A stretch of 64,000 bases of DNA from an uncultured Erysipelotrichaceae bacterium (GTDB lineage: Bacteria; Bacillota_I; Bacilli_A; RFN20; CAG-826), in the NCBI GenBank assembly GCA_902777015.1, contig CACYSA010000006.1:33502-97501 (forward strand). The letters run 5' to 3'. The notes under the pieces were generated by a model. It saw only the letters and a program-made list of their open reading frames with translations, searched no databases and had not been told where the DNA came from. Both the position numbers and the translations under genes were made by a program. This document shows positions 15,174-40,355 of the stretch, one piece after another (position 1 is the first letter of the stretch; each line of letters opens with the position of its first letter).

Positions 15174-15797
15174 CTAATTATTTTCTTTAGCTTTTCTTCT
15201 GGCTTCTTTTTGTTTTTGAAGTTCGATATTATTGTTATAGATTCTTAATAATCTTGGTAAATTATACTTCAGTATAAAAGCGGGTAAAACAATTAATATA
15301 GCGTTGACTACAGCGATTGGTAAAGCAATGGTTAACCAAATATTTGATTGTCCTAAATACATCTTCCAATCTAATAAAATGATTAAAAATGAAGTTGGAA
15401 CGCTCATCAAGTGGATAGCGATACCATATCTTGCTTCTAAAATGAAACGGGCAATATATTCGTTATCAAATGGGTTAACGACTTTGTTTTTATGAAAGGC
15501 AGTGAAACTGCCTAATTCAGGAATATAATCTTTCCATTTTTGGACACCTAAAAATGTATAGAACTTCAGTTCTTTTTCACTAGTTCTTGTAAACCAATAA
15601 TCTTTTTGAAACCATTTTTCTGGTAGCTTTCTAATGATTAAGGCCACTAAAGCGTCAATAAGTATCACGATGATTGTTAACGCTAATGTGAAGATAATAT
15701 AAAGCCACCACTTATCATGGTAAATAGGATTAAGGAAGATATTTAACGATGCTACCGAAATGACACCGATAGCAATAATAATGAGATATAAAACCAT
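15174..15797 (-). CDS. Small polytopic membrane protein, co-transcribed with the GT8-acyltransferase
   Basis: Start overlaps the upstream stop by 1 bp. Four or five TM helices. Confidence 0.4.
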   Translation of the reverse strand: MVLYLIIIAIGVISVASLNIFLNPIYHDKWWLYIIFTLALTIIVILIDALVALIIRKLPEKWFQKDYWFTRTSEKELKFYTFLGVQKWKDYIPELGSFTAFHKNKVVNPFDNEYIARFILEARYGIAIHLMSVPTSFLIILLDWKMYLGQSNIWLTIALPIAVVNAILIVLPAFILKYNLPRLLRIYNNNIELQKQKEARRKAKENN

Positions 15798-17617
15798 TAT
15801 TTAGCCTCGGTGAGATAGGTGAGTGGCTCACCATATACTTTTTCATAGACTTCTTTACAAAGTCTTTCATTTTCTTTTTTCATATTAGTGACATTTTCTT
15901 GTTGGCTTAATCTTTCTTCTGGATAGATAGCGGGTAAGAAATGCAATGTATATGCTTGAATAATAGAGCCATCTTTCGCTATTTTATCAGTATCTCTCAT
16001 CGTAATAAATGTTGGAATAACTGGAACATTATTACGCGCCGCAAAGATAAATGCGCCTTGTTTTAATGGCTTTGGTTTACGATAATTCCACCACATTGAT
16101 TGTTCTGGATAAATGAGGATGTAATTACCTTTATGAAGAATTGTATCAACAGCGTTTTGGAACGACCTTAAAACTGTTGGGTTAGTGGCAAGAGGTAAGG
16201 TATTACAGTTTCTTAGGAAATAACCAAAAATACCTGGCATTGTATAGTTACCTTCTCTAATCACTTTATATAGTTTCTTGCATCTAGCGTATTTTCTAAG
16301 CGCTAAATGGAGTGGAACACTATCAAATGGAGAAAAGTGGTTTGCGGTAATGACTGCCCCACCTTTGACTCTTTTAAGATTTTCAACACCTTCAAAGCCA
16401 TCGATGACAATCGCACCTTTTTTAATCATATGTTTAAAGAAACGATATGAATAATAATTGGCCCACATTGTTTTGACTTTGCTAGTCCATTTTTTTCTTA
16501 AATAGTCAACATCTCCTGGCATTAAGTGACGATATGGGGGATCATTTTCCACATCGACATCGAATTTACCGAGTCTTTCAAGTTCGATAATTTTATTAAC
16601 AACTTCTCTTCTTTCAGGAGAGAGCTTAGACATAATCTCATCAACTTTTTTGATCTTTTGATCCATTGTTTCGTATTTTTCTTTAACGGGTTCTCCATTA
16701 ATCTTTTGATGATATTCTTCCGCTTTAGAAGCTTCTAAATTACAGAATGCTTTTACTCCATCAACGCCTTGAAGAATCTTTTCGGTGACTTCTTGAGGAA
16801 TAGCCTCTCTATTTTTCAAGATTTGGTTTTTAACACCAGCGAGTTCAGCGTATTTGAAGAATTCTTCTTCATACATGATGTTTTCTAAGTTCCAAGGTTT
16901 GAACATTAAGTTATAGTGAATTAAAGATGGCTCATTCACTCTTTCACCAAGTGGCATGACATTCCATTTTTTATCTAATAATAATGTCTTATCTTTGCAA
17001 AGATAATTTAATAAATCTTGGTCTTGAGCAACTTTAAATGTCACTCTCTTTAATAGATTAACAACGCGTTTTTCTAAGCCGAATTCTCTGAGCTTTTTAA
17101 AATTCATTAATAAAACACCAGCGTTAAAGTATTTGGTGTGATCCATTTCAATGACTTTATGAACATAATTAATGAATTCATCATAAAGTTGGACGGATGC
17201 ATCAGGCACCGCACCAACGAGGTTATCACCTAAATCGGTGAAATATAATTTAGCAATATCATCACGGACAACGATATCGCTATCTAAATATAATCCTTTA
17301 TTAAATAAAGGGAATAAATCTGGTAAGAATAAACGGTAATAAGTTGTGATTGTGTAATAATCACGGACATCTAACTTGACTGATAATGAATGCACTTTAA
17401 GTGTGACATCATAAAACCAAATAAAGATGTTTTTGTTGTTTTGAAATTTGCGAAGGGCTTTCTTGCTTTTTGAAGATAAGCCATCGTGAAGAATGGTCAA
17501 GTGATATTTATACTTCTTAGAAGCATGTCTAACGATACTAGCAATAGTCACTGACAGATAAGGGATGTAGTTATCGTCCACAGTGAAGAAGAGACGAACT
17601 ACTTTCTGTTGGGCCAT
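15797..17617 (-). CDS. Bifunctional GT8 glycosyltransferase / PlsC-like lysophospholipid acyltransferase fusion
   Basis: The N-terminus carries GT8 hallmarks (FTVDDNYIPYLSVTIASI, DSD, NAGVLLMN). The C-terminus has the PlsC H(x)4D motif (ANHFSPFD) and FP/PEG-like acyltransferase blocks. Confidence 0.6.
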   Translation of the reverse strand: MAQQKVVRLFFTVDDNYIPYLSVTIASIVRHASKKYKYHLTILHDGLSSKSKKALRKFQNNKNIFIWFYDVTLKVHSLSVKLDVRDYYTITTYYRLFLPDLFPLFNKGLYLDSDIVVRDDIAKLYFTDLGDNLVGAVPDASVQLYDEFINYVHKVIEMDHTKYFNAGVLLMNFKKLREFGLEKRVVNLLKRVTFKVAQDQDLLNYLCKDKTLLLDKKWNVMPLGERVNEPSLIHYNLMFKPWNLENIMYEEEFFKYAELAGVKNQILKNREAIPQEVTEKILQGVDGVKAFCNLEASKAEEYHQKINGEPVKEKYETMDQKIKKVDEIMSKLSPERREVVNKIIELERLGKFDVDVENDPPYRHLMPGDVDYLRKKWTSKVKTMWANYYSYRFFKHMIKKGAIVIDGFEGVENLKRVKGGAVITANHFSPFDSVPLHLALRKYARCKKLYKVIREGNYTMPGIFGYFLRNCNTLPLATNPTVLRSFQNAVDTILHKGNYILIYPEQSMWWNYRKPKPLKQGAFIFAARNNVPVIPTFITMRDTDKIAKDGSIIQAYTLHFLPAIYPEERLSQQENVTNMKKENERLCKEVYEKVYGEPLTYLTEAK

Positions 17618-34248: not shown

Positions 34249-34509
34249 TTAGAGTTTGAAGGAACATCTACAGTCTTGACATTTACAGAATCTACCATTA
34301 CCAGTGCTAAAGTATGTGTAGTTTTTGCTACCACAGTTAGGGCACTTATCACTGGAACAAACACCACCACCACTGATGACTTCTAATTGTTCATCAGTTA
34401 ATTCAACGCCTTCTTGCTTTGCAAGATTGAGTAGCTCATCATGGTTTTTGCACTCTCTTAATTTGGCAATCTGTTCGTCAGTTAAGCCTTTTAATAATTC
34501 TTCTTTCAT
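34249..34509 (-). CDS. Leader-peptide-type precursor: Nif11-like leader, double-glycine cleavage site, Cys-rich core
   Basis: From the internal Met (RBS AAAGGAGA): MKEELLKGLTDEQIAKLRECKNHDELLNLAKQEGVELTDEQLEVISGG, then core GVCSSDKCPNCGSKNYTYFSTGNGRFCKCQDCRCSFKL (7 Cys). Confidence 0.5.
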   Translation of the reverse strand: MKEELLKGLTDEQIAKLRECKNHDELLNLAKQEGVELTDEQLEVISGGGVCSSDKCPNCGSKNYTYFSTGNGRFCKCQDCRCSFKL

Positions 34510-34663
34510 TATCAAAGTTCTCCTTTGTTGCTTGTATGTTAACATGGTAGTTGTCACAGAAGTGCCACAAAAGAAAAAGGATTGATTAATCAATCCTACA
34601 TTTTCTAAGTTGGCCTAAATGGGCAGAAATGATACAATTGAACACTTCTCAAAAAGCCGAACG

Positions 34664-35308
34664 CTATTTCTTTAATAGCTTTTTAAGCTCTTTTTTGCTT
34701 TGGTCTATATCCCCAGTAAGTAATGGGATTAGTTTTTTAATTTCTTCAATATCTTTGTCCCACCACTTGAGTTCCAAAAGAAGATCAATTGTTTCTTTAT
34801 CAAATCTATATTTCTTAACAACTGCGGGATTACCTACGACAACCGCATAAGGAGGAACGTCTTTTGCCACAACCGCATTAGCGCCAATAACTGCACCGTC
34901 GCCAATATGGACTCCTGGAAGAATTGTGGCATTTTGTCCAATCCAAACATCATTACCTACGACTGTATCTCCACGGTTGCCTCTATCTCCAAATGATCTA
35001 GATAGACCTTTGAATTCGTCAATGATTTCAAAAGGATAAGTTGTTAAACAATCTAACATATGATTAGCGCCATTCATGACAAATTCCACGCCTCTTGCAA
35101 TAGCAACAAACTTGCCTATGATAAGTTTATCGCCCATAAAATCGTAATGATGAGTAACGTGTTTTTCAAACGATTCTGGACCATCTTCGCTATCATCATA
35201 ATATGAATAATCACCCACAATAATGTTTGGTCTAGTGATTACGCTTTTGATATAGCAAAAGGTTTTAAATTGTGCATTTGGGTAAATTGGTTTCATTTCT
35301 TTTTTCAT
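34664..35308 (-). CDS. Hexapeptide-repeat xenobiotic acetyltransferase (Vat/streptogramin-A acetyltransferase-like)
   Basis: Left-handed beta-helix hexapeptide repeats ([31 protein letters not shown]) with an N-terminal Vat-like region (VGDYSYY...). Confidence 0.6.
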
Positions 35309-35620
35309 AACAGTATGATAGCAAAAAAATAAAAGGACTGACACTTTGTATCAATTCTATTTAACTAAGTTGGGTTTGGCTAACAGGAAATATGCCTACT
35401 TTTTGAAAAACCTAACAGGAAAAATGCCTATCCAGTAGATACTATTTAAGCAATTTAACCATGTTATTGCTTTTCAAGAGCCTCCCTAAGCCCCTATAAA
35501 AGTATAATACAAATCTCTTCTTTTAGAAAAGTGAGTCCTAAGTTTCTGGAAAATGAAATGGATGTTCCTTCATGTCTTTTAACATCCCTTTAACTAGATA
35601 GTTTTTCAACAGCCCCTTTT

Positions 35621-36226
35621 TTATTTCTTTAAGAAATAGTAGATCATTATCGCAGCTTCTAGCGGCACCCCGACAAGGAATAACATCCAAGCATAATAAT
35701 TGCTGATTAATAGTTGTAAGAATCCAACCAGCAAAATTGACCACATTAAAATAGACAAACTGATTGACATAGCAAACCTATAATCACGTCTTTTTAAAAA
35801 TATAGACACGATAATCGCACATAATGGTATCGCATATATAAAGGCAATCCAGAATGTACTCGCATTACTGATATCTCTTAACGAAGCAATCAGAAACACA
35901 ACTGTAGCGATGGTGAATACAGAGATACAAAGCAAAATAGTGACGAGAAGTCCGTTGATAAACATCTTACTAGACTTTTTCACAAACTTCTTTTGTTCAT
36001 CTTCGTTCTCATGGAAGAAGTAGTCGATTTGGACATCAAAAAGGTTCGCTAAAGCAAGCAAAGCGTCTGGATCTGGACTGGATTCACCTCTCTCCCATTT
36101 GGAGATTGCCTTATCTGAGTAGTCCATTTTCTCAGCGAGTTCTAATTGAGTCCACTTTTTCCCTTTTCTTAAAAAAGTTATGTTCCCGCCTATGATTTCT
36201 TTAATGTCACGTGTATTTTTTGTCAC
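35621..36226 (-). CDS. Membrane-anchored XRE-family HTH transcriptional regulator
   Basis: N-terminal HTH_XRE (LRKGKKWTQLELAEKMDYSDKAISKWERG) followed by four TM helices. Confidence 0.65.
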   Translation of the reverse strand: MTKNTRDIKEIIGGNITFLRKGKKWTQLELAEKMDYSDKAISKWERGESSPDPDALLALANLFDVQIDYFFHENEDEQKKFVKKSSKMFINGLLVTILLCISVFTIATVVFLIASLRDISNASTFWIAFIYAIPLCAIIVSIFLKRRDYRFAMSISLSILMWSILLVGFLQLLISNYYAWMLFLVGVPLEAAIMIYYFLKK

Positions 36227-36235
36227 AAAAAATCT

Positions 36236-36275
36236 TCTCTACGAATTGTAGAATATAAATTCTACGAAAAATATT
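36236..36275. promoter_or_regulatory. Overlapping palindromes (TCTAC-N5-GTAGA and GTAGAAT-ATAA-ATTCTAC) in the divergent XRE / GT4 promoter region
   Basis: Sequence TCTACGAATTGTAGAATATAAATTCTACGAA lies between the XRE start (36226) and the GT4 gene start (36320). Confidence 0.4.
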
Positions 36276-36319
36276 TTATCAGTTTATATTGTTTTTTCAA
36301 TTAAAGGAATAATCTATTC

Positions 36320-38248
36320 GTGTTCGAAGGGTTTATGAAAGTTCTTGTAGTAGCAGATGTATTAGGAGAAGAGAATAACGGCACCACTATCGCGTGTATG
36401 AATTTAGTAAGATATATGTCGTCTCAAGGCGATGATGTCAAAATCTTATGTGCGGATCGCGATAAAAAAGGTAACCATAATTATTTTGTTGTACCAGAAC
36501 TAAATTTAGGTTACATCATCAATTACTTTGTTCATAAAAACAATGTTGTATTGGCTAAACCAACTAAGAAAATAATACGAAAAGCATTAGATGGTGTTGA
36601 TGTTGTTCACATTATGATGCCTTTCGCATTGGGTAGAGCAGCATTAAAAGAAGCAAGAAAAAGAGGCATTCCAGTTACTGCTGGGTTCCACTGCCAAGCC
36701 GAGAATTTTACATCTCACCTTGGATTAATGAACGTCCCACTAGCAAATAATCTCACATATAAGAATTTCTATAATCATTTTTATAAATACGTGGACGCTA
36801 TTCACTATCCAACTGATTTTATTAGAGAATATTTTGAACGTGTCATAAAAAGAAAAACAAATTCATATGTCATCTCTAATGGCGTGAATCATCAATATAA
36901 GAAATATAAATTGGAGAGAAAAGGTAAACTAGCCAATCACTTTAATATCTTGTTTATTGGTAGATATTCAAAAGAAAAAACACACCCGTTGCTTATAAAA
37001 GCGGTTTCTTTATCAAAGCACAAGGATGATATTCAACTTATTTTTGCTGGTCAAGGTCCGTATGCAAACAGCATGAAAAAACTTTCAAAAGAATTAGGGA
37101 TTATTCCACCGATCATGAAGTTTTATTCAAGACAAGATTTAGTGAAAGTTATCAATTCATGTGACTTATATGTCCATCCAGCAGAAATTGAAATTGAAGC
37201 TATCTCCTGTTTAGAAGCTATTACATGTGGATTAGTACCAGTAATATCTGATTCAGAGAGAAGTGCGACTAATAAATTTGCTTTGAGTGAAAAGAATCTC
37301 TTCAAATACGATTCTCCAGAAGATTTAGCGAATAAAATTGATTACTGGATTGAACATCCTGAAGAAAAAGAAGAATGTTCTAAACAATATCTCGGTTATA
37401 CAAAACAGTTCGAACAAAAATACTGTATGGAAAAGACGAGAAATATGATTCTCTCTTATACAAAAAAAGATTGTTATACAACTCAAGAGAAAAGATATTA
37501 CCAAGATGAAATAAACGATGACTTCGCAAATAACGGTATTGTCGCAAAACATAATAAAGTTGGATATAAATATATCCATAAGAATATTTTCTTTAGATTT
37601 TTCTCTACTTTATTAAGAACAATTGCCAGACCATTAATCTGGTTGATGAACAAGATTGTTTATAAGCAAAAGATAGTTAATAAAAAGATATTAAAGAAAT
37701 ATAAGAAGAGTGGTTACTTCATATATGCTAATCACACTACTTCTATGGGTGATGCTTATACTCCAAATATCTTATCGAGAAAGAATTACATCCTAGTAGG
37801 TGAAGAAGCCACAAGCATACCATTTGTTAGAACGATAGTTTCAATGTTAGGGGCACTGCCAATCCCATATCACAGTGAAAATATCAAACCATTCTTAGAT
37901 TCAGTTCAATATTATATAAAAGATAAGAAAGCCTCTATTACCATCTATCCAGAAGCACATATCTGGCCAACATATACAAAAATAAGAAACTTCAAACATG
38001 CATCATTTAGATATCCAGTTGACCTAAATGTTCCTTGCTTCTCTATCACTAATACATATAGACCAGGAAAGAATCCAAAGAAGCCAAAACTCGTTTCAAT
38101 CATCGATGGTCCATTCTATCCAAACCCATCTCTTAATCGAGCGGATGCGATTAAAGATTTAAGAGACCAAATATATGAAAATATGGTAAAAAGGGCAGCA
38201 GAAGTCCCACAAATTGAACAAATTCGATATATTAAAGTCGAAAAATAA
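36320..38248 (+). CDS. Bifunctional GT4 glycosyltransferase / PlsC-like acyltransferase fusion
   Basis: N-terminal GT4 domain (E-x7-E: EIEAISCLEA; FIGRYSKEK). C-terminal acyltransferase H(x)4D (ANHTTSMGD). Confidence 0.6.
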   Translation: MFEGFMKVLVVADVLGEENNGTTIACMNLVRYMSSQGDDVKILCADRDKKGNHNYFVVPELNLGYIINYFVHKNNVVLAKPTKKIIRKALDGVDVVHIMMPFALGRAALKEARKRGIPVTAGFHCQAENFTSHLGLMNVPLANNLTYKNFYNHFYKYVDAIHYPTDFIREYFERVIKRKTNSYVISNGVNHQYKKYKLERKGKLANHFNILFIGRYSKEKTHPLLIKAVSLSKHKDDIQLIFAGQGPYANSMKKLSKELGIIPPIMKFYSRQDLVKVINSCDLYVHPAEIEIEAISCLEAITCGLVPVISDSERSATNKFALSEKNLFKYDSPEDLANKIDYWIEHPEEKEECSKQYLGYTKQFEQKYCMEKTRNMILSYTKKDCYTTQEKRYYQDEINDDFANNGIVAKHNKVGYKYIHKNIFFRFFSTLLRTIARPLIWLMNKIVYKQKIVNKKILKKYKKSGYFIYANHTTSMGDAYTPNILSRKNYILVGEEATSIPFVRTIVSMLGALPIPYHSENIKPFLDSVQYYIKDKKASITIYPEAHIWPTYTKIRNFKHASFRYPVDLNVPCFSITNTYRPGKNPKKPKLVSIIDGPFYPNPSLNRADAIKDLRDQIYENMVKRAAEVPQIEQIRYIKVEK

Positions 38249-38284
38249 AGGGGCTGTTGAAAAACCTAATAAAATAAGAAAAAA

Positions 38285-38317
38285 AGCGAATTTGCCTAGG
38301 CATTTTCGCTGTTTCTT
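38285..38317. terminator. Bidirectional terminator between convergent genes
   Basis: AGCGAATTTGCCTAGGCATTTTCGCT hairpin followed by GTTTCTT. Confidence 0.5.
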
Positions 38318-38411
38318 CATTATGGCAGGGTGTAAAGATTTTAATACAACGCTACACCTTGGAACAAAATGCTACAGTGTGGAACATCCACTACTCGAGA
38401 GCATGATGATA

Positions 38412-39758
38412 TTATATTTTTTTGTAATAAGCGTTTTTATCTGCTTCCTCGTTGATGGTTTTATTAATCAACTCTTTCATCATTTCTTTTGTTATTTCTT
38501 TATCATCAACAAAGCCACCAAGAGGTGCTATTTCCATCAACCTATCGAGATGTAATTTCGCCTCTTCAAAATGATGATTTTCAGCAAGCGCCAAAGCAAA
38601 ATAATACTCAATTTGTTTATAACTATAAATACATGAATCTCTACCAGTGTAGTCTTTATTTTGAATAAGTTCTTTGTATAGTTGTGTTGCTTTACCAACA
38701 TCATCACAATAGACAGCACAAATCATAAGATAATATTTGTAATAATCTACATTGCTCGTTTCGCATAGATTTTTAAACAAAGGATAGGCTTGATTATATT
38801 CTTTTTCATCAAATAATCTTAATGCTTTTATTTGATTCTTTTCTTCTTTAGAAGAAGCAATATATGTGGGTTCAATTTTGATATTATTATCTTTTAAAGA
38901 TTCTAAAAATAGGTTTTGCCTAAAAATAATACCTTCAACTGGCAATATACAAATTATTTCACCACCATGATTAGCAACATATATTCTCATGGTTGGATTG
39001 GTTTTGACATATACAACTGCTATCTCACTAAGTTTTGCTTCTTTGGTTTTAAAAACATCGACATATTTATAAACACCGTTTTTGAAAGAGAAACAGCCTC
39101 GTTTATAAACAATCAATCCGAGCAAACCAATCACTAAGAAAAGAAGGCCTATAAAACACATCGGATAATTATGTGGAGGAATAATATTCAACAAGCAGAA
39201 AATAAGGAATTCAATTGAGACAATTAATCCAAGAGAAAAGGAAAGAATAAAGAGTATTTGAGCGAATCTAGGATAATAGATTGCAAATTCTTTTGGATTA
39301 TTTTCTGGCTTCTTAAATTGAATAATTGCAAACATCAAAACAAGAAGGGATGCAGAAAATGGAATGGTAATAAAGATTGTTGAAACAACCAAATCGTTTT
39401 TTCTGTAATATTCCATTACATCAAAGAAGACCTGATCACCACGTTTTAATATATAAATAATTGTGTACGTTGACTTCCCAGATTGTTCTCTTAGTTTAAT
39501 ATTGACCGAATCGCCACTATTCAATTGGCTTAGCAAAGTAAAATCAACTCCGTTTGATTCGTAAGCTATATAAGTTATGTCATCGTTATAAAATGTCAAA
39601 TAAGCATTATTATCATCAAACTCAACGGTTTGAACTGTTTTATCTACTTCATAAAACACTTTTGGCTTTAAAGAGAAACCTGTAATAACCGCTCCAACAA
39701 TGGCAAACACTAACGCTAATATAAGCTTTCCTAAGTTCTTTTTGATAAAGCTTTTCAT
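38412..39758 (-). CDS. Membrane protein with C-terminal TPR-like helical repeats
   Basis: N-terminal TM helix, central cluster of four TM helices, C-terminal Tyr/Leu-rich helical repeat region. Confidence 0.4.
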   Translation of the reverse strand: MKSFIKKNLGKLILALVFAIVGAVITGFSLKPKVFYEVDKTVQTVEFDDNNAYLTFYNDDITYIAYESNGVDFTLLSQLNSGDSVNIKLREQSGKSTYTIIYILKRGDQVFFDVMEYYRKNDLVVSTIFITIPFSASLLVLMFAIIQFKKPENNPKEFAIYYPRFAQILFILSFSLGLIVSIEFLIFCLLNIIPPHNYPMCFIGLLFLVIGLLGLIVYKRGCFSFKNGVYKYVDVFKTKEAKLSEIAVVYVKTNPTMRIYVANHGGEIICILPVEGIIFRQNLFLESLKDNNIKIEPTYIASSKEEKNQIKALRLFDEKEYNQAYPLFKNLCETSNVDYYKYYLMICAVYCDDVGKATQLYKELIQNKDYTGRDSCIYSYKQIEYYFALALAENHHFEEAKLHLDRLMEIAPLGGFVDDKEITKEMMKELINKTINEEADKNAYYKKI

Positions 39759-39824
39759 GAATAAATCTTATCACTAAAATATGTTCCATTTAACAAAAAG
39801 AAATATCAAAAGCTTATTCAAAAG

Positions 39825-40043
39825 TTATCGTTCAATCTTTTCTACATCAGAACCATAATCGCAAGCTCTTTTTTTCATCCTGAAAATGCTTTCCTCCATT
39901 TTGTATTTGAAGGCTATTTTGCGTTCAATCTCGATGTAATCTTCAATTGTGATCTCTCCCTTATTTAACAATTCTTCAAAACTAACCATAACTACTAGGT
40001 AGTTATGCACCCTTGCTGCGTATTCACGATTTATGCCTTCCAT
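39825..40043 (-). CDS. Small hypothetical protein
   Basis: 72 aa, charged. Upstream tandem direct repeat. Confidence 0.3.
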   Translation of the reverse strand: MEGINREYAARVHNYLVVMVSFEELLNKGEITIEDYIEIERKIAFKYKMEESIFRMKKRACDYGSDVEKIER

Positions 40044-40106
40044 CTTAGTGGACCTCCTATTATTTCCACTAATCGCTCTAAGTAAAAAAATGGAAGAAAA
40101 ATTTAA

Positions 40107-40278: not shown

Positions 40279-40355
40279 TGGTGACGAATACGGGATTCGA
40301 ACCCGTGAGTGCATGCGTGAAAGGCATGTGAGTTAAGCCGCTTCTCCAATTCGCC
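40279..40355 (-). tRNA. tRNA-Glu (anticodon TTC)
   Basis: GGCGAAT acceptor, anticodon stem CATGC/GCATG, loop CTTTCAC, T-arm ACGGGTTCGAATCCCGT and CCA. Confidence 0.8.

Follow-up and report, generated by a model that had tools for sequence, protein, structure and literature searches.

A divergent gene pair between inverted repeats

The window, which is the whole 64,000-nucleotide stretch of DNA that was analysed, comes from a rumen bacterium and carries a 2.7-kb block in which a regulator gene and the gene of a fusion enzyme lie divergently between two 25-nt inverted repeats. The fusion enzyme is coded on the forward strand by one open frame (36320..38248) of 642 amino acids when counted from GTG 36320. 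All 20 aligned homologues and database entry P0001, a 637-residue protein 100% identical to the fusion protein, begin at ATG 36335 (MKVL...), which makes this codon the likelier start; the gene probably spans 36335..38248 and codes a product of 637 amino acids. Pfam residue ranges of this protein are given below in the 642-residue numbering and motif residues in the 637-residue numbering. Its AlphaFold2 model has a mean pLDDT of 89.6 and a pTM of 0.83, and hydropathy analysis of the full protein gave no transmembrane segment. The initial annotation had read a GT4 glycosyltransferase and a PlsC-type acyltransferase in this single gene, and Pfam and fold comparisons bear it out for both domains.

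The second gene (35621..36226, reverse strand) codes an XRE-family protein of 201 amino acids, recognized by its HTH_3 domain (residues 19-70, E 8.8e-15 in Pfam), its hydrophobic segments (95-113, 126-144, 155-173 and 181-199) and the neighbourhoods of its homologues. The four membrane segments are kept in 13 homologues, and within the membrane part residues W126, W162, W180 and P188 do not vary among 13 sequences. The protein is a predicted membrane-embedded regulator, with an amino-terminal helix-turn-helix and four putative transmembrane helices. By architecture alone it can be likened to BcrR, the membrane-bound bacitracin-resistance regulator of Enterococcus faecalis, which has an XRE-type DNA-binding head and four transmembrane helices and acts on an adjacent operon. 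BcrR controls an ABC transporter, while the divergent XRE gene described here adjoins a gene for a predicted lipid-modifying enzyme. According to PMC10269533, BcrR is counted among the transmembrane transcription regulators. Comparison of the XRE protein with plasmids yielded partial matches only, below 60% identity, and the best 25 of 250 bear the generic labels 'helix-turn-helix' or 'hypothetical protein'.

The two genes are separated by a spacer of 108 nt that contains two overlapping palindromes, TCTAC-N5-GTAGA (36238-36252) and GTAGAAT-N4-ATTCTAC (36248-36265). Together they form a candidate operator (36238..36265), and the XRE gene has a promoter-like site on the reverse strand at 36300-36273. 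GTAGAAT and ATTCTAC arms spaced by 3-5 nt recur in seven of nine intergenic regions (the window and loci L001, L002, L003, L004, L008 and L020), and degenerate versions are present in L005 and L006. There is just one perfect site in the 1.6-Mb assembly; a scan of the assembly found one further site, on contig C3, that deviates at a single position, which by estimate is about chance level. The divergent gene and the spacer palindromes had been noticed initially and both stand, but the attribution of the regulator to a neighbouring peptide cluster does not, because 13 of 80 related loci have a full-length XRE homologue next to their GT4/acyltransferase genes, none of the 50 other loci clustered has a counterpart of the peptide and Vat-like genes, and homology to L001 ends ~25 nt past the XRE gene.

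The left inverted repeat (35601..35625) overlaps the XRE stop codon and is 92% complementary to the right repeat (38241..38265), which overlaps the stop codon of the fusion gene. Their exact core of 19 nt occurs in two copies only in the window (0.03 expected), and a 16-nt part of it recurs nowhere else in the assembly as an exact copy. In L001, which belongs to another species and has different flanks, the two-gene block is 97.5% identical; homology with L001 ends on the left at 35594, and its main block ends on the right at 38269. Other DNA common to the two species is 83-87% identical. No DNA match to the two-gene block was found in one genome of the same genus, and no 25-nt inverted repeats were found around the homologous modules of L002-L008; these repeats belong to the window/L001 copy and are not family-wide. 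The repeat itself forms no hairpin. Beyond the XRE gene, the folding is no more stable than that of shuffled sequences (z +0.84). Just outside the block on the right, a palindrome forms a terminator-like hairpin on the forward strand (38281..38314). It lies within a 66-nt stretch likewise common to L001; the segment 38240-38325 folds with -17.9 kcal/mol (z -1.96), and a consensus terminator scan has no entry for the hairpin. The two-gene unit is apparently a mobile, independent cassette, judging from these sequence comparisons.

Domains of the fusion enzyme

The glycosyltransferase domain (36377..37384, forward strand), supported by Pfam, Foldseek and phmmer, consists of the two Rossmann-like domains of GT4 (GT-B) enzymes, Glyco_transf_4 (residues 20-192, E 1.1e-19) and Glycos_transf_1 (residues 206-355, E 6.4e-26). 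The GT4 motif E-x7-E, read at first sight from the letters, is formed by E286 (37190-37192) and E294 (37214-37216), neither of which varies among the 21 sequences aligned. Foldseek aligns the domain with MshA, BshA, PimA, PimB' and WaaG over ~400 columns. Its best match is 3qhp, the catalytic domain of the Helicobacter pylori cholesterol alpha-glucosyltransferase HP0421 ('CapJ'), with 44% identity, a target TM-score of 0.95 and an rmsd of 1.2 Å; phmmer relates residues 203-353 to this type of catalytic domain with E 2.9e-39. The solved part of the H. pylori enzyme is the nucleotide-sugar (donor-binding) half, to which the structural comparison is limited. Identity to other solved GT4 structures is 12-18%, so that no other solved GT4 enzyme comes near the likeness to the H. 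pylori one. A feature search placed the whole glycosyltransferase domain beside a Campylobacterota 'CapJ' cluster of 389 amino acids (score 1.00, 234 of 256 features); this is no more than a lead, and for the acceptor-binding amino-terminal half it is the sole source of the likeness to the H. pylori enzyme. The top NCBIfam rows for the domain are lipid glycosyltransferases, all far under their cut-offs.

The PlsC-type (LPLAT) domain (37700..38044, forward strand) is defined by its match to PF01553, its conserved box and its fold matches. The profile search finds PF01553 at residues 461-575 (E 1.1e-7) with a score of 32.2 bits, the cut-off being 23, so that the acyltransferase homology on which the first reading of the gene turned holds. 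The match is modest, and the stand-alone partner proteins of loci where the two activities are split score 29-41 bits. H467 (37733-37735) and D473 (37751-37753) delimit an HX5D box (NHTTSMGD), and a PEAH block lies at 37949-37960. Residues H467, D473, P539, E540, H542, W544 and P545 are invariant in alignment A1. The box spacing is HX5D in the fusion protein and HX4D in other family members, and in one aligned acyltransferase member an N replaces the Asp of the box.

The fold comparison of this domain is headed by six LPLAT-superfamily rows, including PlsC (Z 15.3), GPAT1 (14.5), squash GPAT (12.4), PatA (10.4) and LpxM (9.1), followed by a clear drop to a next row at 5.0, and Foldseek agrees. 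In the predicted structure the carboxyl-terminal domain has a glycerolipid acyltransferase fold. Its sequence profile retrieved nothing at E up to 1 from the sequences of solved structures. The top fold match, over 187 aligned residues, is the 1-acylglycerol-3-phosphate acyltransferase PlsC of Thermotoga maritima (5kym). The two share the His/Asp box and a PE-containing block, and PlsC is reportedly described in its structure paper with an amino-terminal interfacial helix, as in the junction of the fusion protein. They differ in that the fusion domain is only 16% identical to PlsC, has the HX5D spacing, a YYxDxxNDDF motif and a YPEAHIWP block, and is coupled to a glycosyltransferase.

The junction between the domains (37487..37657, forward strand) was delimited from the homologue alignment, the predicted structure and hydropathy. 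It contains the conserved YYxDxxNDDF motif, at which the stand-alone acyltransferases of split loci start, and an amphipathic helix at about residues 417-441 (418-441 in the model) with a hydrophobic moment of 1.7-1.9 and a mean hydropathy of ~0.9. This helix is a likely membrane-interface anchor in the modelled protein.

Coupling of glycosyltransferases and acyltransferases

Among 51 loci that span 9 kb or more (window included), 10 have the two domains fused, 33 have the GT4 gene followed directly by an acyltransferase gene and 8 have GT4 only. Fusion or adjacency is thus found in 43 of the 51, across Bacilli and Clostridia, and the glycosyltransferase can presumably work alone, since 8 loci have no acyltransferase beside the GT4 gene. 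The gap between the split genes is -86 to +70 nt in all 22 split loci examined. A fusion in the reverse order was found (acyltransferase at 70-200, GT4 at 293-637), and a single genome carries fused and split copies together. Within one taxonomic family, by our reading of the table from a search that covered 61 genomes, 12 genomes have the fused form, 20 the split and adjacent form, and 7 a GT4 gene without an adjoining acyltransferase match. GT4 and acyltransferase are evolutionarily coupled and the coupling is widespread in Firmicutes, adjoining genes being its commonest form. Other conserved neighbours are few, one of them being a DagK-like lipid kinase that occurs in 4 of these loci; no polymerase, flippase or sugar-nucleotide enzyme is found among the nine annotated neighbour families. 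A full-text search of a limited literature collection gave no description of a GT4-acyltransferase fusion or of a bacterial enzyme that acylates glucolipids.

A GT8-acyltransferase fusion had been proposed within 20 kb of the GT4 fusion, and it is real (15797..17617, reverse strand, ~18.7 kb away). Both join a glycosyltransferase to a PlsC-type domain, but the GT8 fusion has a GT-A fold and a CrtO-like partner gene, whereas the GT4 fusion has a GT-B fold and the membrane XRE regulator as partner. Their acyltransferase domains are only 24% identical. The further proposal that the two fusions serve one dedicated pathway is not supported: nothing links these genes, which lie on opposite strands, and the GT4 unit behaves as an independent cassette. 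The same genome also has a GT2 gene that overlaps a paralogue of the acyltransferase of the GT4 fusion. With the GT4 and GT8 fusions, this brings to three the glycosyltransferase folds that are each paired with an acyltransferase in one genome.

The lipid genes of the host were surveyed in an assembly that is 82% complete. PlsY and six DegV/FakB-type fatty-acid binders are present. No ketoacyl synthase or LtaS-type enzyme was found. Such a gene set would suit an organism that scavenges fatty acids and depends on remodelled lipids for its membrane. No MGDG-synthase-type (PF06925) gene was found either, which in an incomplete assembly does not by itself establish that it is absent.

Proposed activity and its significance

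We are inclined, with moderate confidence, to see the fusion protein as a bifunctional peripheral membrane enzyme that would glucosylate a lipid alcohol and then acylate the sugar. It would work at the cytoplasmic face, peripheral to the membrane. The GT4 domain, as a retaining GT-B enzyme, would link a hexose in the alpha configuration to a membrane lipid through the hydroxyl of the latter, the donor sugar being most likely glucose from UDP-glucose. The amphipathic junction helix would hold the PlsC-type domain at the interface, and this domain would then add a fatty acid to the product by an ester bond, most likely at the sugar, to yield an acylated alpha-glucosyl lipid. The divergent four-helix XRE regulator probably sets expression through the GTAGAAT...ATTCTAC operator, which would let the cell answer to something sensed inside the membrane. 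What the comparisons show directly are the two domains with their folds and catalytic motifs, the coupling of both enzymes in many genomes, and the conservation of regulator and palindrome. The donor sugar, lipid acceptor, acylated position, acyl donor and regulatory logic are the parts of this scheme that we infer. For the acceptor, diacylglycerol is our tentative first choice by estimate, a sterol from host or feed is a serious but less probable candidate, and any other molecule is rather unlikely. An acyl-glycolipid, as the initial annotation had suggested, is still the most economical product of a GT4-acyltransferase fusion. Points that weigh against the scheme are the modest PF01553 score, the failure of the domain profile to retrieve a solved chain, the HX5D spacing and the aligned member that lacks the Asp, the loci with GT4 only and the scarcity of other conserved neighbours.

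Two known routes resemble this scheme. The H. pylori enzyme works with UDP-glucose at the membrane and was discovered through its likeness to Gram-positive diacylglycerol alpha-glucosyltransferases, according to PMC10489377. In the H. pylori pathway, as outlined in PMC12667688, a membrane lipid alcohol is glucosylated and the sugar is then acylated by the product of a separate gene, hp0499 (HP0499, cholesteryl glucoside 6'-acyltransferase). HP0421 stands alone, whereas here the PlsC-type domain is fused or adjacent. HP0499 is a member of a different, unrelated protein family, and its gene is located elsewhere in the H. pylori genome. In mycobacteria, PimA (GT4) and PatA likewise give, at the cytoplasmic face, a lipid-linked sugar that is acylated by an LPLAT-superfamily enzyme. 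The fold searches retrieve both enzymes, at 16-17% identity to PimA and 6-12% to PatA, but the mycobacterial enzymes are coded by two separate genes and use phosphatidylinositol as acceptor and mannose as sugar. Pfam assigns the fusion domain to PF01553 and to no other acyltransferase family, while PatA is a member of the lipid A acyltransferases (PF03279).

The acyltransferase may instead act on the glycerol backbone, re-acylating a lyso-glycolipid or a monoacylglycerol, so that scavenged partial glycerides would end as glucosyl-diacylglycerol. Sites at which plant galactolipids and fats are broken down by hydrolysis are rich in partial glycerides, and the host has the look of a fatty-acid scavenger in its six DegV/FakB-type binders and the lack of a detected ketoacyl synthase. 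The modelled fold favours this alternative, as the backbone enzymes PlsC and GPAT1 outscore the sugar-acylating PatA (Z 15.3 and 14.5 versus 10.4), with squash GPAT also ahead. The rank of a fold does not fix the acceptor, however, and the acyltransferase subfamily is marked by a YYxDxxNDDF motif of its own, which no solved PlsC matches by sequence. That a single genome pairs this acyltransferase subfamily with glycosyltransferases of three unrelated folds is more easily explained by acylation of the sugar that each glycosyltransferase adds, and we consider action on the backbone unlikely. That the molecule glycosylated and acylated is a polymer of the cell surface or a soluble metabolite, rather than a membrane lipid, appears quite improbable. 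The old label of the nearest relative, 'capsular polysaccharide protein J', many polysaccharide pathways with GT4 enzymes, and several NCBIfam rows of exopolysaccharide or teichuronic-acid enzymes, far under their cut-offs, would speak for it. Yet the structure-bank title of the same 'CapJ' entry is cholesterol alpha-glucosyltransferase, the nine neighbour families annotated lack polymerases, flippases and sugar-nucleotide enzymes, and a PlsC-type domain with an interfacial helix points to lipids, which are the substrates of such proteins. Adjacent genes of compact genomes do fuse at random, but a meaningless joining of unrelated neighbours through stop-codon loss is hardly credible for a pair that recurs in most of the 51 loci, across two classes, in both domain orders, and both fused and split in one genome.

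Within the preferred scheme of lipid glucosylation followed by sugar acylation, a more speculative version, to which we give limited credence, makes the two-gene block a self-contained, horizontally moving sterol-handling cassette. The XRE protein would sense a sterol or other lipid alcohol in the bilayer and switch on the enzyme, which would form an acyl steryl glucoside via the steryl alpha-glucoside, as a Firmicute counterpart of the H. pylori route. Oscillibacter isolates from the human gut are reported to form cholesterol alpha-D-glucoside, with gene candidates that are structure-based only, and the Oscillospiraceae split pairs would be the genes of this product. If so, they predict an acylated product in Oscillibacter, so far unsought.

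The properties of membranes are shaped by acylated glycolipids and steryl glucosides, which are described as strong immune ligands in Helicobacter, Borrelia and similar pathogens (PMC7666875). To our knowledge, few genes for acylation of the glycolipid sugar have been identified in Firmicutes and Mollicutes. The membrane regulator with its defined palindrome offers a simple handle towards the inducing signal, and the block between the repeats illustrates, on a small scale, gene flow among rumen species. The GT4-acyltransferase family, which occurs in hundreds of species from the gut, the rumen and the environment, provides a concrete candidate for sugar acylation and, if the acceptor is a sterol, would bear directly on the modification of cholesterol by gut bacteria.

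Catalytic domains of the GT4-acyltransferase fusion

The GT4-acyltransferase fusion gene is one uninterrupted frame on the + strand (36320..38248). ATG 36335 is its likelier start, because a database entry 100% identical to the fusion protein has 637 amino acids and all 20 of 20 aligned homologues begin with MK(V/I)L...; residues are counted from this codon. The initial annotation had proposed a GT4 domain with an E-x7-E pair followed by a region of acyltransferase homology, and both are borne out. Pfam recognizes Glyco_transf_4 (E 1.1e-19) and Glycos_transf_1 (E 6.4e-26), and profile search of the carboxyl-terminal part gives Acyltransferase PF01553 (E 1.1e-7, 32.2 bits, cut-off 23). All NCBIfam rows lie far under their curated cut-offs, the top ones being lipid glycosyltransferases (IagA/BgsA, GlcNAc-phosphatidylglycerol synthase and monoglucosyl-diacylglycerol synthase). 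Invariant across 21 aligned full-length relatives (43-69% identity to the window protein) are the E-x7-E pair E286/E294, H467 and D473, and the block P539-E540-x-H542-x-W544-P545. Five residues separate His from Asp in the fusion protein and its near relatives, against the canonical four in more distant members. By Pfam and by fold, both predicted catalytic domains are intact.

The AlphaFold2 model of the whole protein (pLDDT 89.6, pTM 0.83) has as top structural match of its GT domain the catalytic domain of the Helicobacter pylori cholesterol alpha-glucosyltransferase (PDB access code 3qhp; 44% identity over 157 columns, target TM-score 0.95, rmsd 1.2 A). The remaining GT4 structures among the matches listed (MshA, BshA, PimA, PimB', WaaG and others) share 12-18% identity, and sequence search agrees on the H. 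pylori enzyme (E 2.9e-39). A feature-based look-up, taken as a lead only, puts the entire GT domain (382 aa) next to a Campylobacterota cluster of 389 aa labelled 'capsular polysaccharide biosynthesis protein J', the former name of the same H. pylori enzyme. The acyltransferase domain, modelled by itself from 24 sequences (pLDDT 89.7), matches the folds of PlsC (Z 15.3), GPAT1 (14.5), a chain of a complex I assembly intermediate (13.4), squash GPAT (12.4), PatA (10.4) and LpxM (9.1), the following row scoring 5.0. Foldseek retrieves the same families, and searching the domain profile against sequences of solved structures matched no chain by sequence alone. No transmembrane segments were found in the fusion protein; its junction helix (residues ~417-441) is strongly amphipathic and probably interfacial.

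Forms and spread of the pairing

A word-based protein search with the fusion scored 3014 proteins with an E-value of 0.001 or lower, and a scan of one genome per species confirmed at least 589 stretches. By submitters' labels the sources are Bacilli (Erysipelotrichaceae, Izemoplasmatales, Haloplasmataceae, Acholeplasmatales), Clostridia (Oscillospiraceae, Acutalibacteraceae, Lachnospiraceae) and a few other groups. All 80 loci returned are records of metagenome-assembled genomes or uncultured isolates, many from rumen and gut samples. Among 36 of these examined, 14 encode a fused protein and 22 have a GT4 frame ending after ~380 residues. In each of these 22 the frame that comes next, at -86 to +70 nt, is an acyltransferase of 260-303 aa, which starts at a conserved YYxDxxNDDF motif and matches PF01553. 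Eleven further loci matched by the GT half only have no acyltransferase frame within 1.5 kb; in two of these the downstream DNA is shorter than 200 nt. Tallied from maps, the 51 loci of 9 kb or longer (window counted) comprise 10 fused, 33 split-adjacent and 8 GT-only.

In the taxonomic family of the window, a threshold of E 1e-25 gives matches in 51 of 61 genomes and none in the other 10. Read from the table, these genomes hold 10 GT4-acyltransferase fusions, 2 reversed fusions (by Pfam, acyltransferase at 70-200 and GT4 at 293-637), 20 split-adjacent pairs, 7 GT parts without an adjoining acyltransferase match and 12 acyltransferase parts only; fused and split copies occur together in one genome. 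Across the class, 76 of 300 genomes sampled have a match to the acyltransferase profile with an E-value no higher than 1e-20, paralogues counted in. Comparison of gene arrangements shows the predicted GT4 and acyltransferase to be evolutionarily coupled. The existence of fusions in both orders and the close spacing of the split genes speak for a single pathway shared by both activities. The literature searched yielded no published description of the fusion, which is widespread and without a name of its own.

PIG-A is the GT4 enzyme of GPI-anchor synthesis. A Basidiomycota cluster of the protein atlas (733 aa, 69 members) joins it to a PF01553 domain, and could represent a separate event in which these two folds became fused in eukaryotes.

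The other fusion reported in the window, of GT8 type, is present at 15797..17617; its acyltransferase is only 24% identical to that of the GT4 fusion. Elsewhere in the same assembly (contig C10, 47269-49390; locus L081, 3270-5388) a 449-aa membrane GT2 overlaps by 11 nt a 260-aa acyltransferase, a paralogue of the fusion's subfamily that scores 246 bits against the profile of the domain. With it, a single small genome pairs acyltransferases with three different glycosyltransferase folds. The assembly has nine PF01553-type genes, eight found by six-frame search plus the studied fusion, which that search missed; two of the nine encode longer proteins (446 and 410 aa).

The divergent regulator and the repeat-bounded block

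The divergent gene (35621..36226, - strand) codes for a 201-aa protein with an XRE helix-turn-helix and four hydrophobic helices, in whose membrane part W126, W162, W180 and P188 are invariant. Full-length homologues, 30-51% identical (96.5% for L001, the copy in another species), adjoin GT4/acyltransferase genes in 13 of 80 loci, accompanying fused and split forms alike. They are divergent upstream in ten (L001-L006, L008, L009, L020, L051) and just downstream on the opposite strand in three (L017, L064, L078); the other 67, most Clostridia loci included, have no adjoining homologue. The palindromes claimed for the shared spacer are found at 36238-36252 and, overlapping it, at 36248-36265, the candidate operator. 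GTAGAAT/ATTCTAC arms 3-5 nt apart lie near the regulator start codon in seven of nine intergenic regions compared, with degenerate forms in the other two, and 36248-36265 is the sole perfect site in the assembly. From the position of a promoter-like site for the regulator gene (36300-36273), the palindrome would lie just downstream of this gene's putative transcription start. It would also overlap the -35 of a possible + strand promoter (TATATT, 36285-36290), judged by eye.

The regulator had been assigned to the peptide cluster on its left, an assignment which does not hold: its homologues adjoin GT4/acyltransferase genes, and gene-family clustering finds no counterpart of the peptide and Vat-like genes in any of 50 other loci. 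Gene neighbourhoods show the predicted membrane regulator to be dedicated to the fusion gene, with a conserved palindrome. The left-hand genes, both on the - strand, code for a small Cys-rich peptide after a Gly-Gly leader-like stretch (34249-34593; weak Nif11/bacteriocin-family matches, E about 0.003) and a hexapeptide-repeat acetyltransferase (34664-35344; 257 bits to the Vat streptogramin A acetyltransferase model, cut-off 300), whose region has 86%-identical DNA in the congener G326.

L001, the representative of its species, is homologous to the window DNA only at 35594-38269 (2,676 bp, 97.5%) and over 66 nt at 38260-38325; its right flank matches a different contig of the window's genome at 83-87%. 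Inverted repeats of 25 nt, 92% complementary, bound the block (35601-35625 and 38241-38265). Their 19-nt core is exact and has no further copy in the window (0.03 expected); for a 16-nt portion of it, the assembly holds no additional exact copy. G326 (92% complete) matches both sides and has no DNA match from ~35328 to 40100. The block lies in a variable stretch beside tRNA-Glu (40279-40355). Just outside the repeats, a predicted 448-aa protein (38412-39758, - strand) has no Pfam or NCBIfam match, and its gene has no DNA match in the L001 copy or G326. On this DNA comparison, regulator and fusion appear to be a bounded, moving block; the 25-nt repeats were absent around more distant homologous modules.

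On contig C3 (138598-138893) a motif related to the repeat core, GGGGCTGTTAAGAAAC, with two mismatches to it, stands as two inverted copies 280 nt apart. These could mark another small element of this type, or form a pair of terminator arms.

Proposed function and lipid context

The GT4 domain would take UDP-glucose and form an alpha-glucoside on a membrane lipid alcohol, which the acyltransferase domain would next esterify. The PimA/PatA and H. pylori CGT/CGAT pairs follow the same logic; the fusion's acyltransferase is outside the families of PatA and CGAT. Diacylglycerol is our tentative choice of acceptor, at slightly less than an even chance; a sterol is somewhat less probable. The sterol is pointed to by analogy with the H. 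pylori enzyme as nearest solved relative. That enzyme was itself spotted by likeness to Gram-positive diacylglycerol glucosyltransferases (PMC10489377), and a DagK/YegS-type lipid kinase adjoins or lies near the GT4 gene in four of 51 loci, all Clostridia (L022, L025, L029, L075). A second step re-acylating glycerol, not the sugar, is a rival kept alive by fold scores to backbone acyltransferases that exceed the one to PatA.

In the host assembly (1.6 Mb, 82% complete; absences are provisional) no ketoacyl synthase, LtaS-type or MGDG-synthase-type enzyme was found, and PlsY and six DegV/FakB-type fatty-acid binders are present, which suggests that the host is a fatty-acid scavenger. The block is accessory and apparently regulated and mobile, a character more in keeping with a response to some exogenous compound in the membrane than with a lipid synthase in a housekeeping role.
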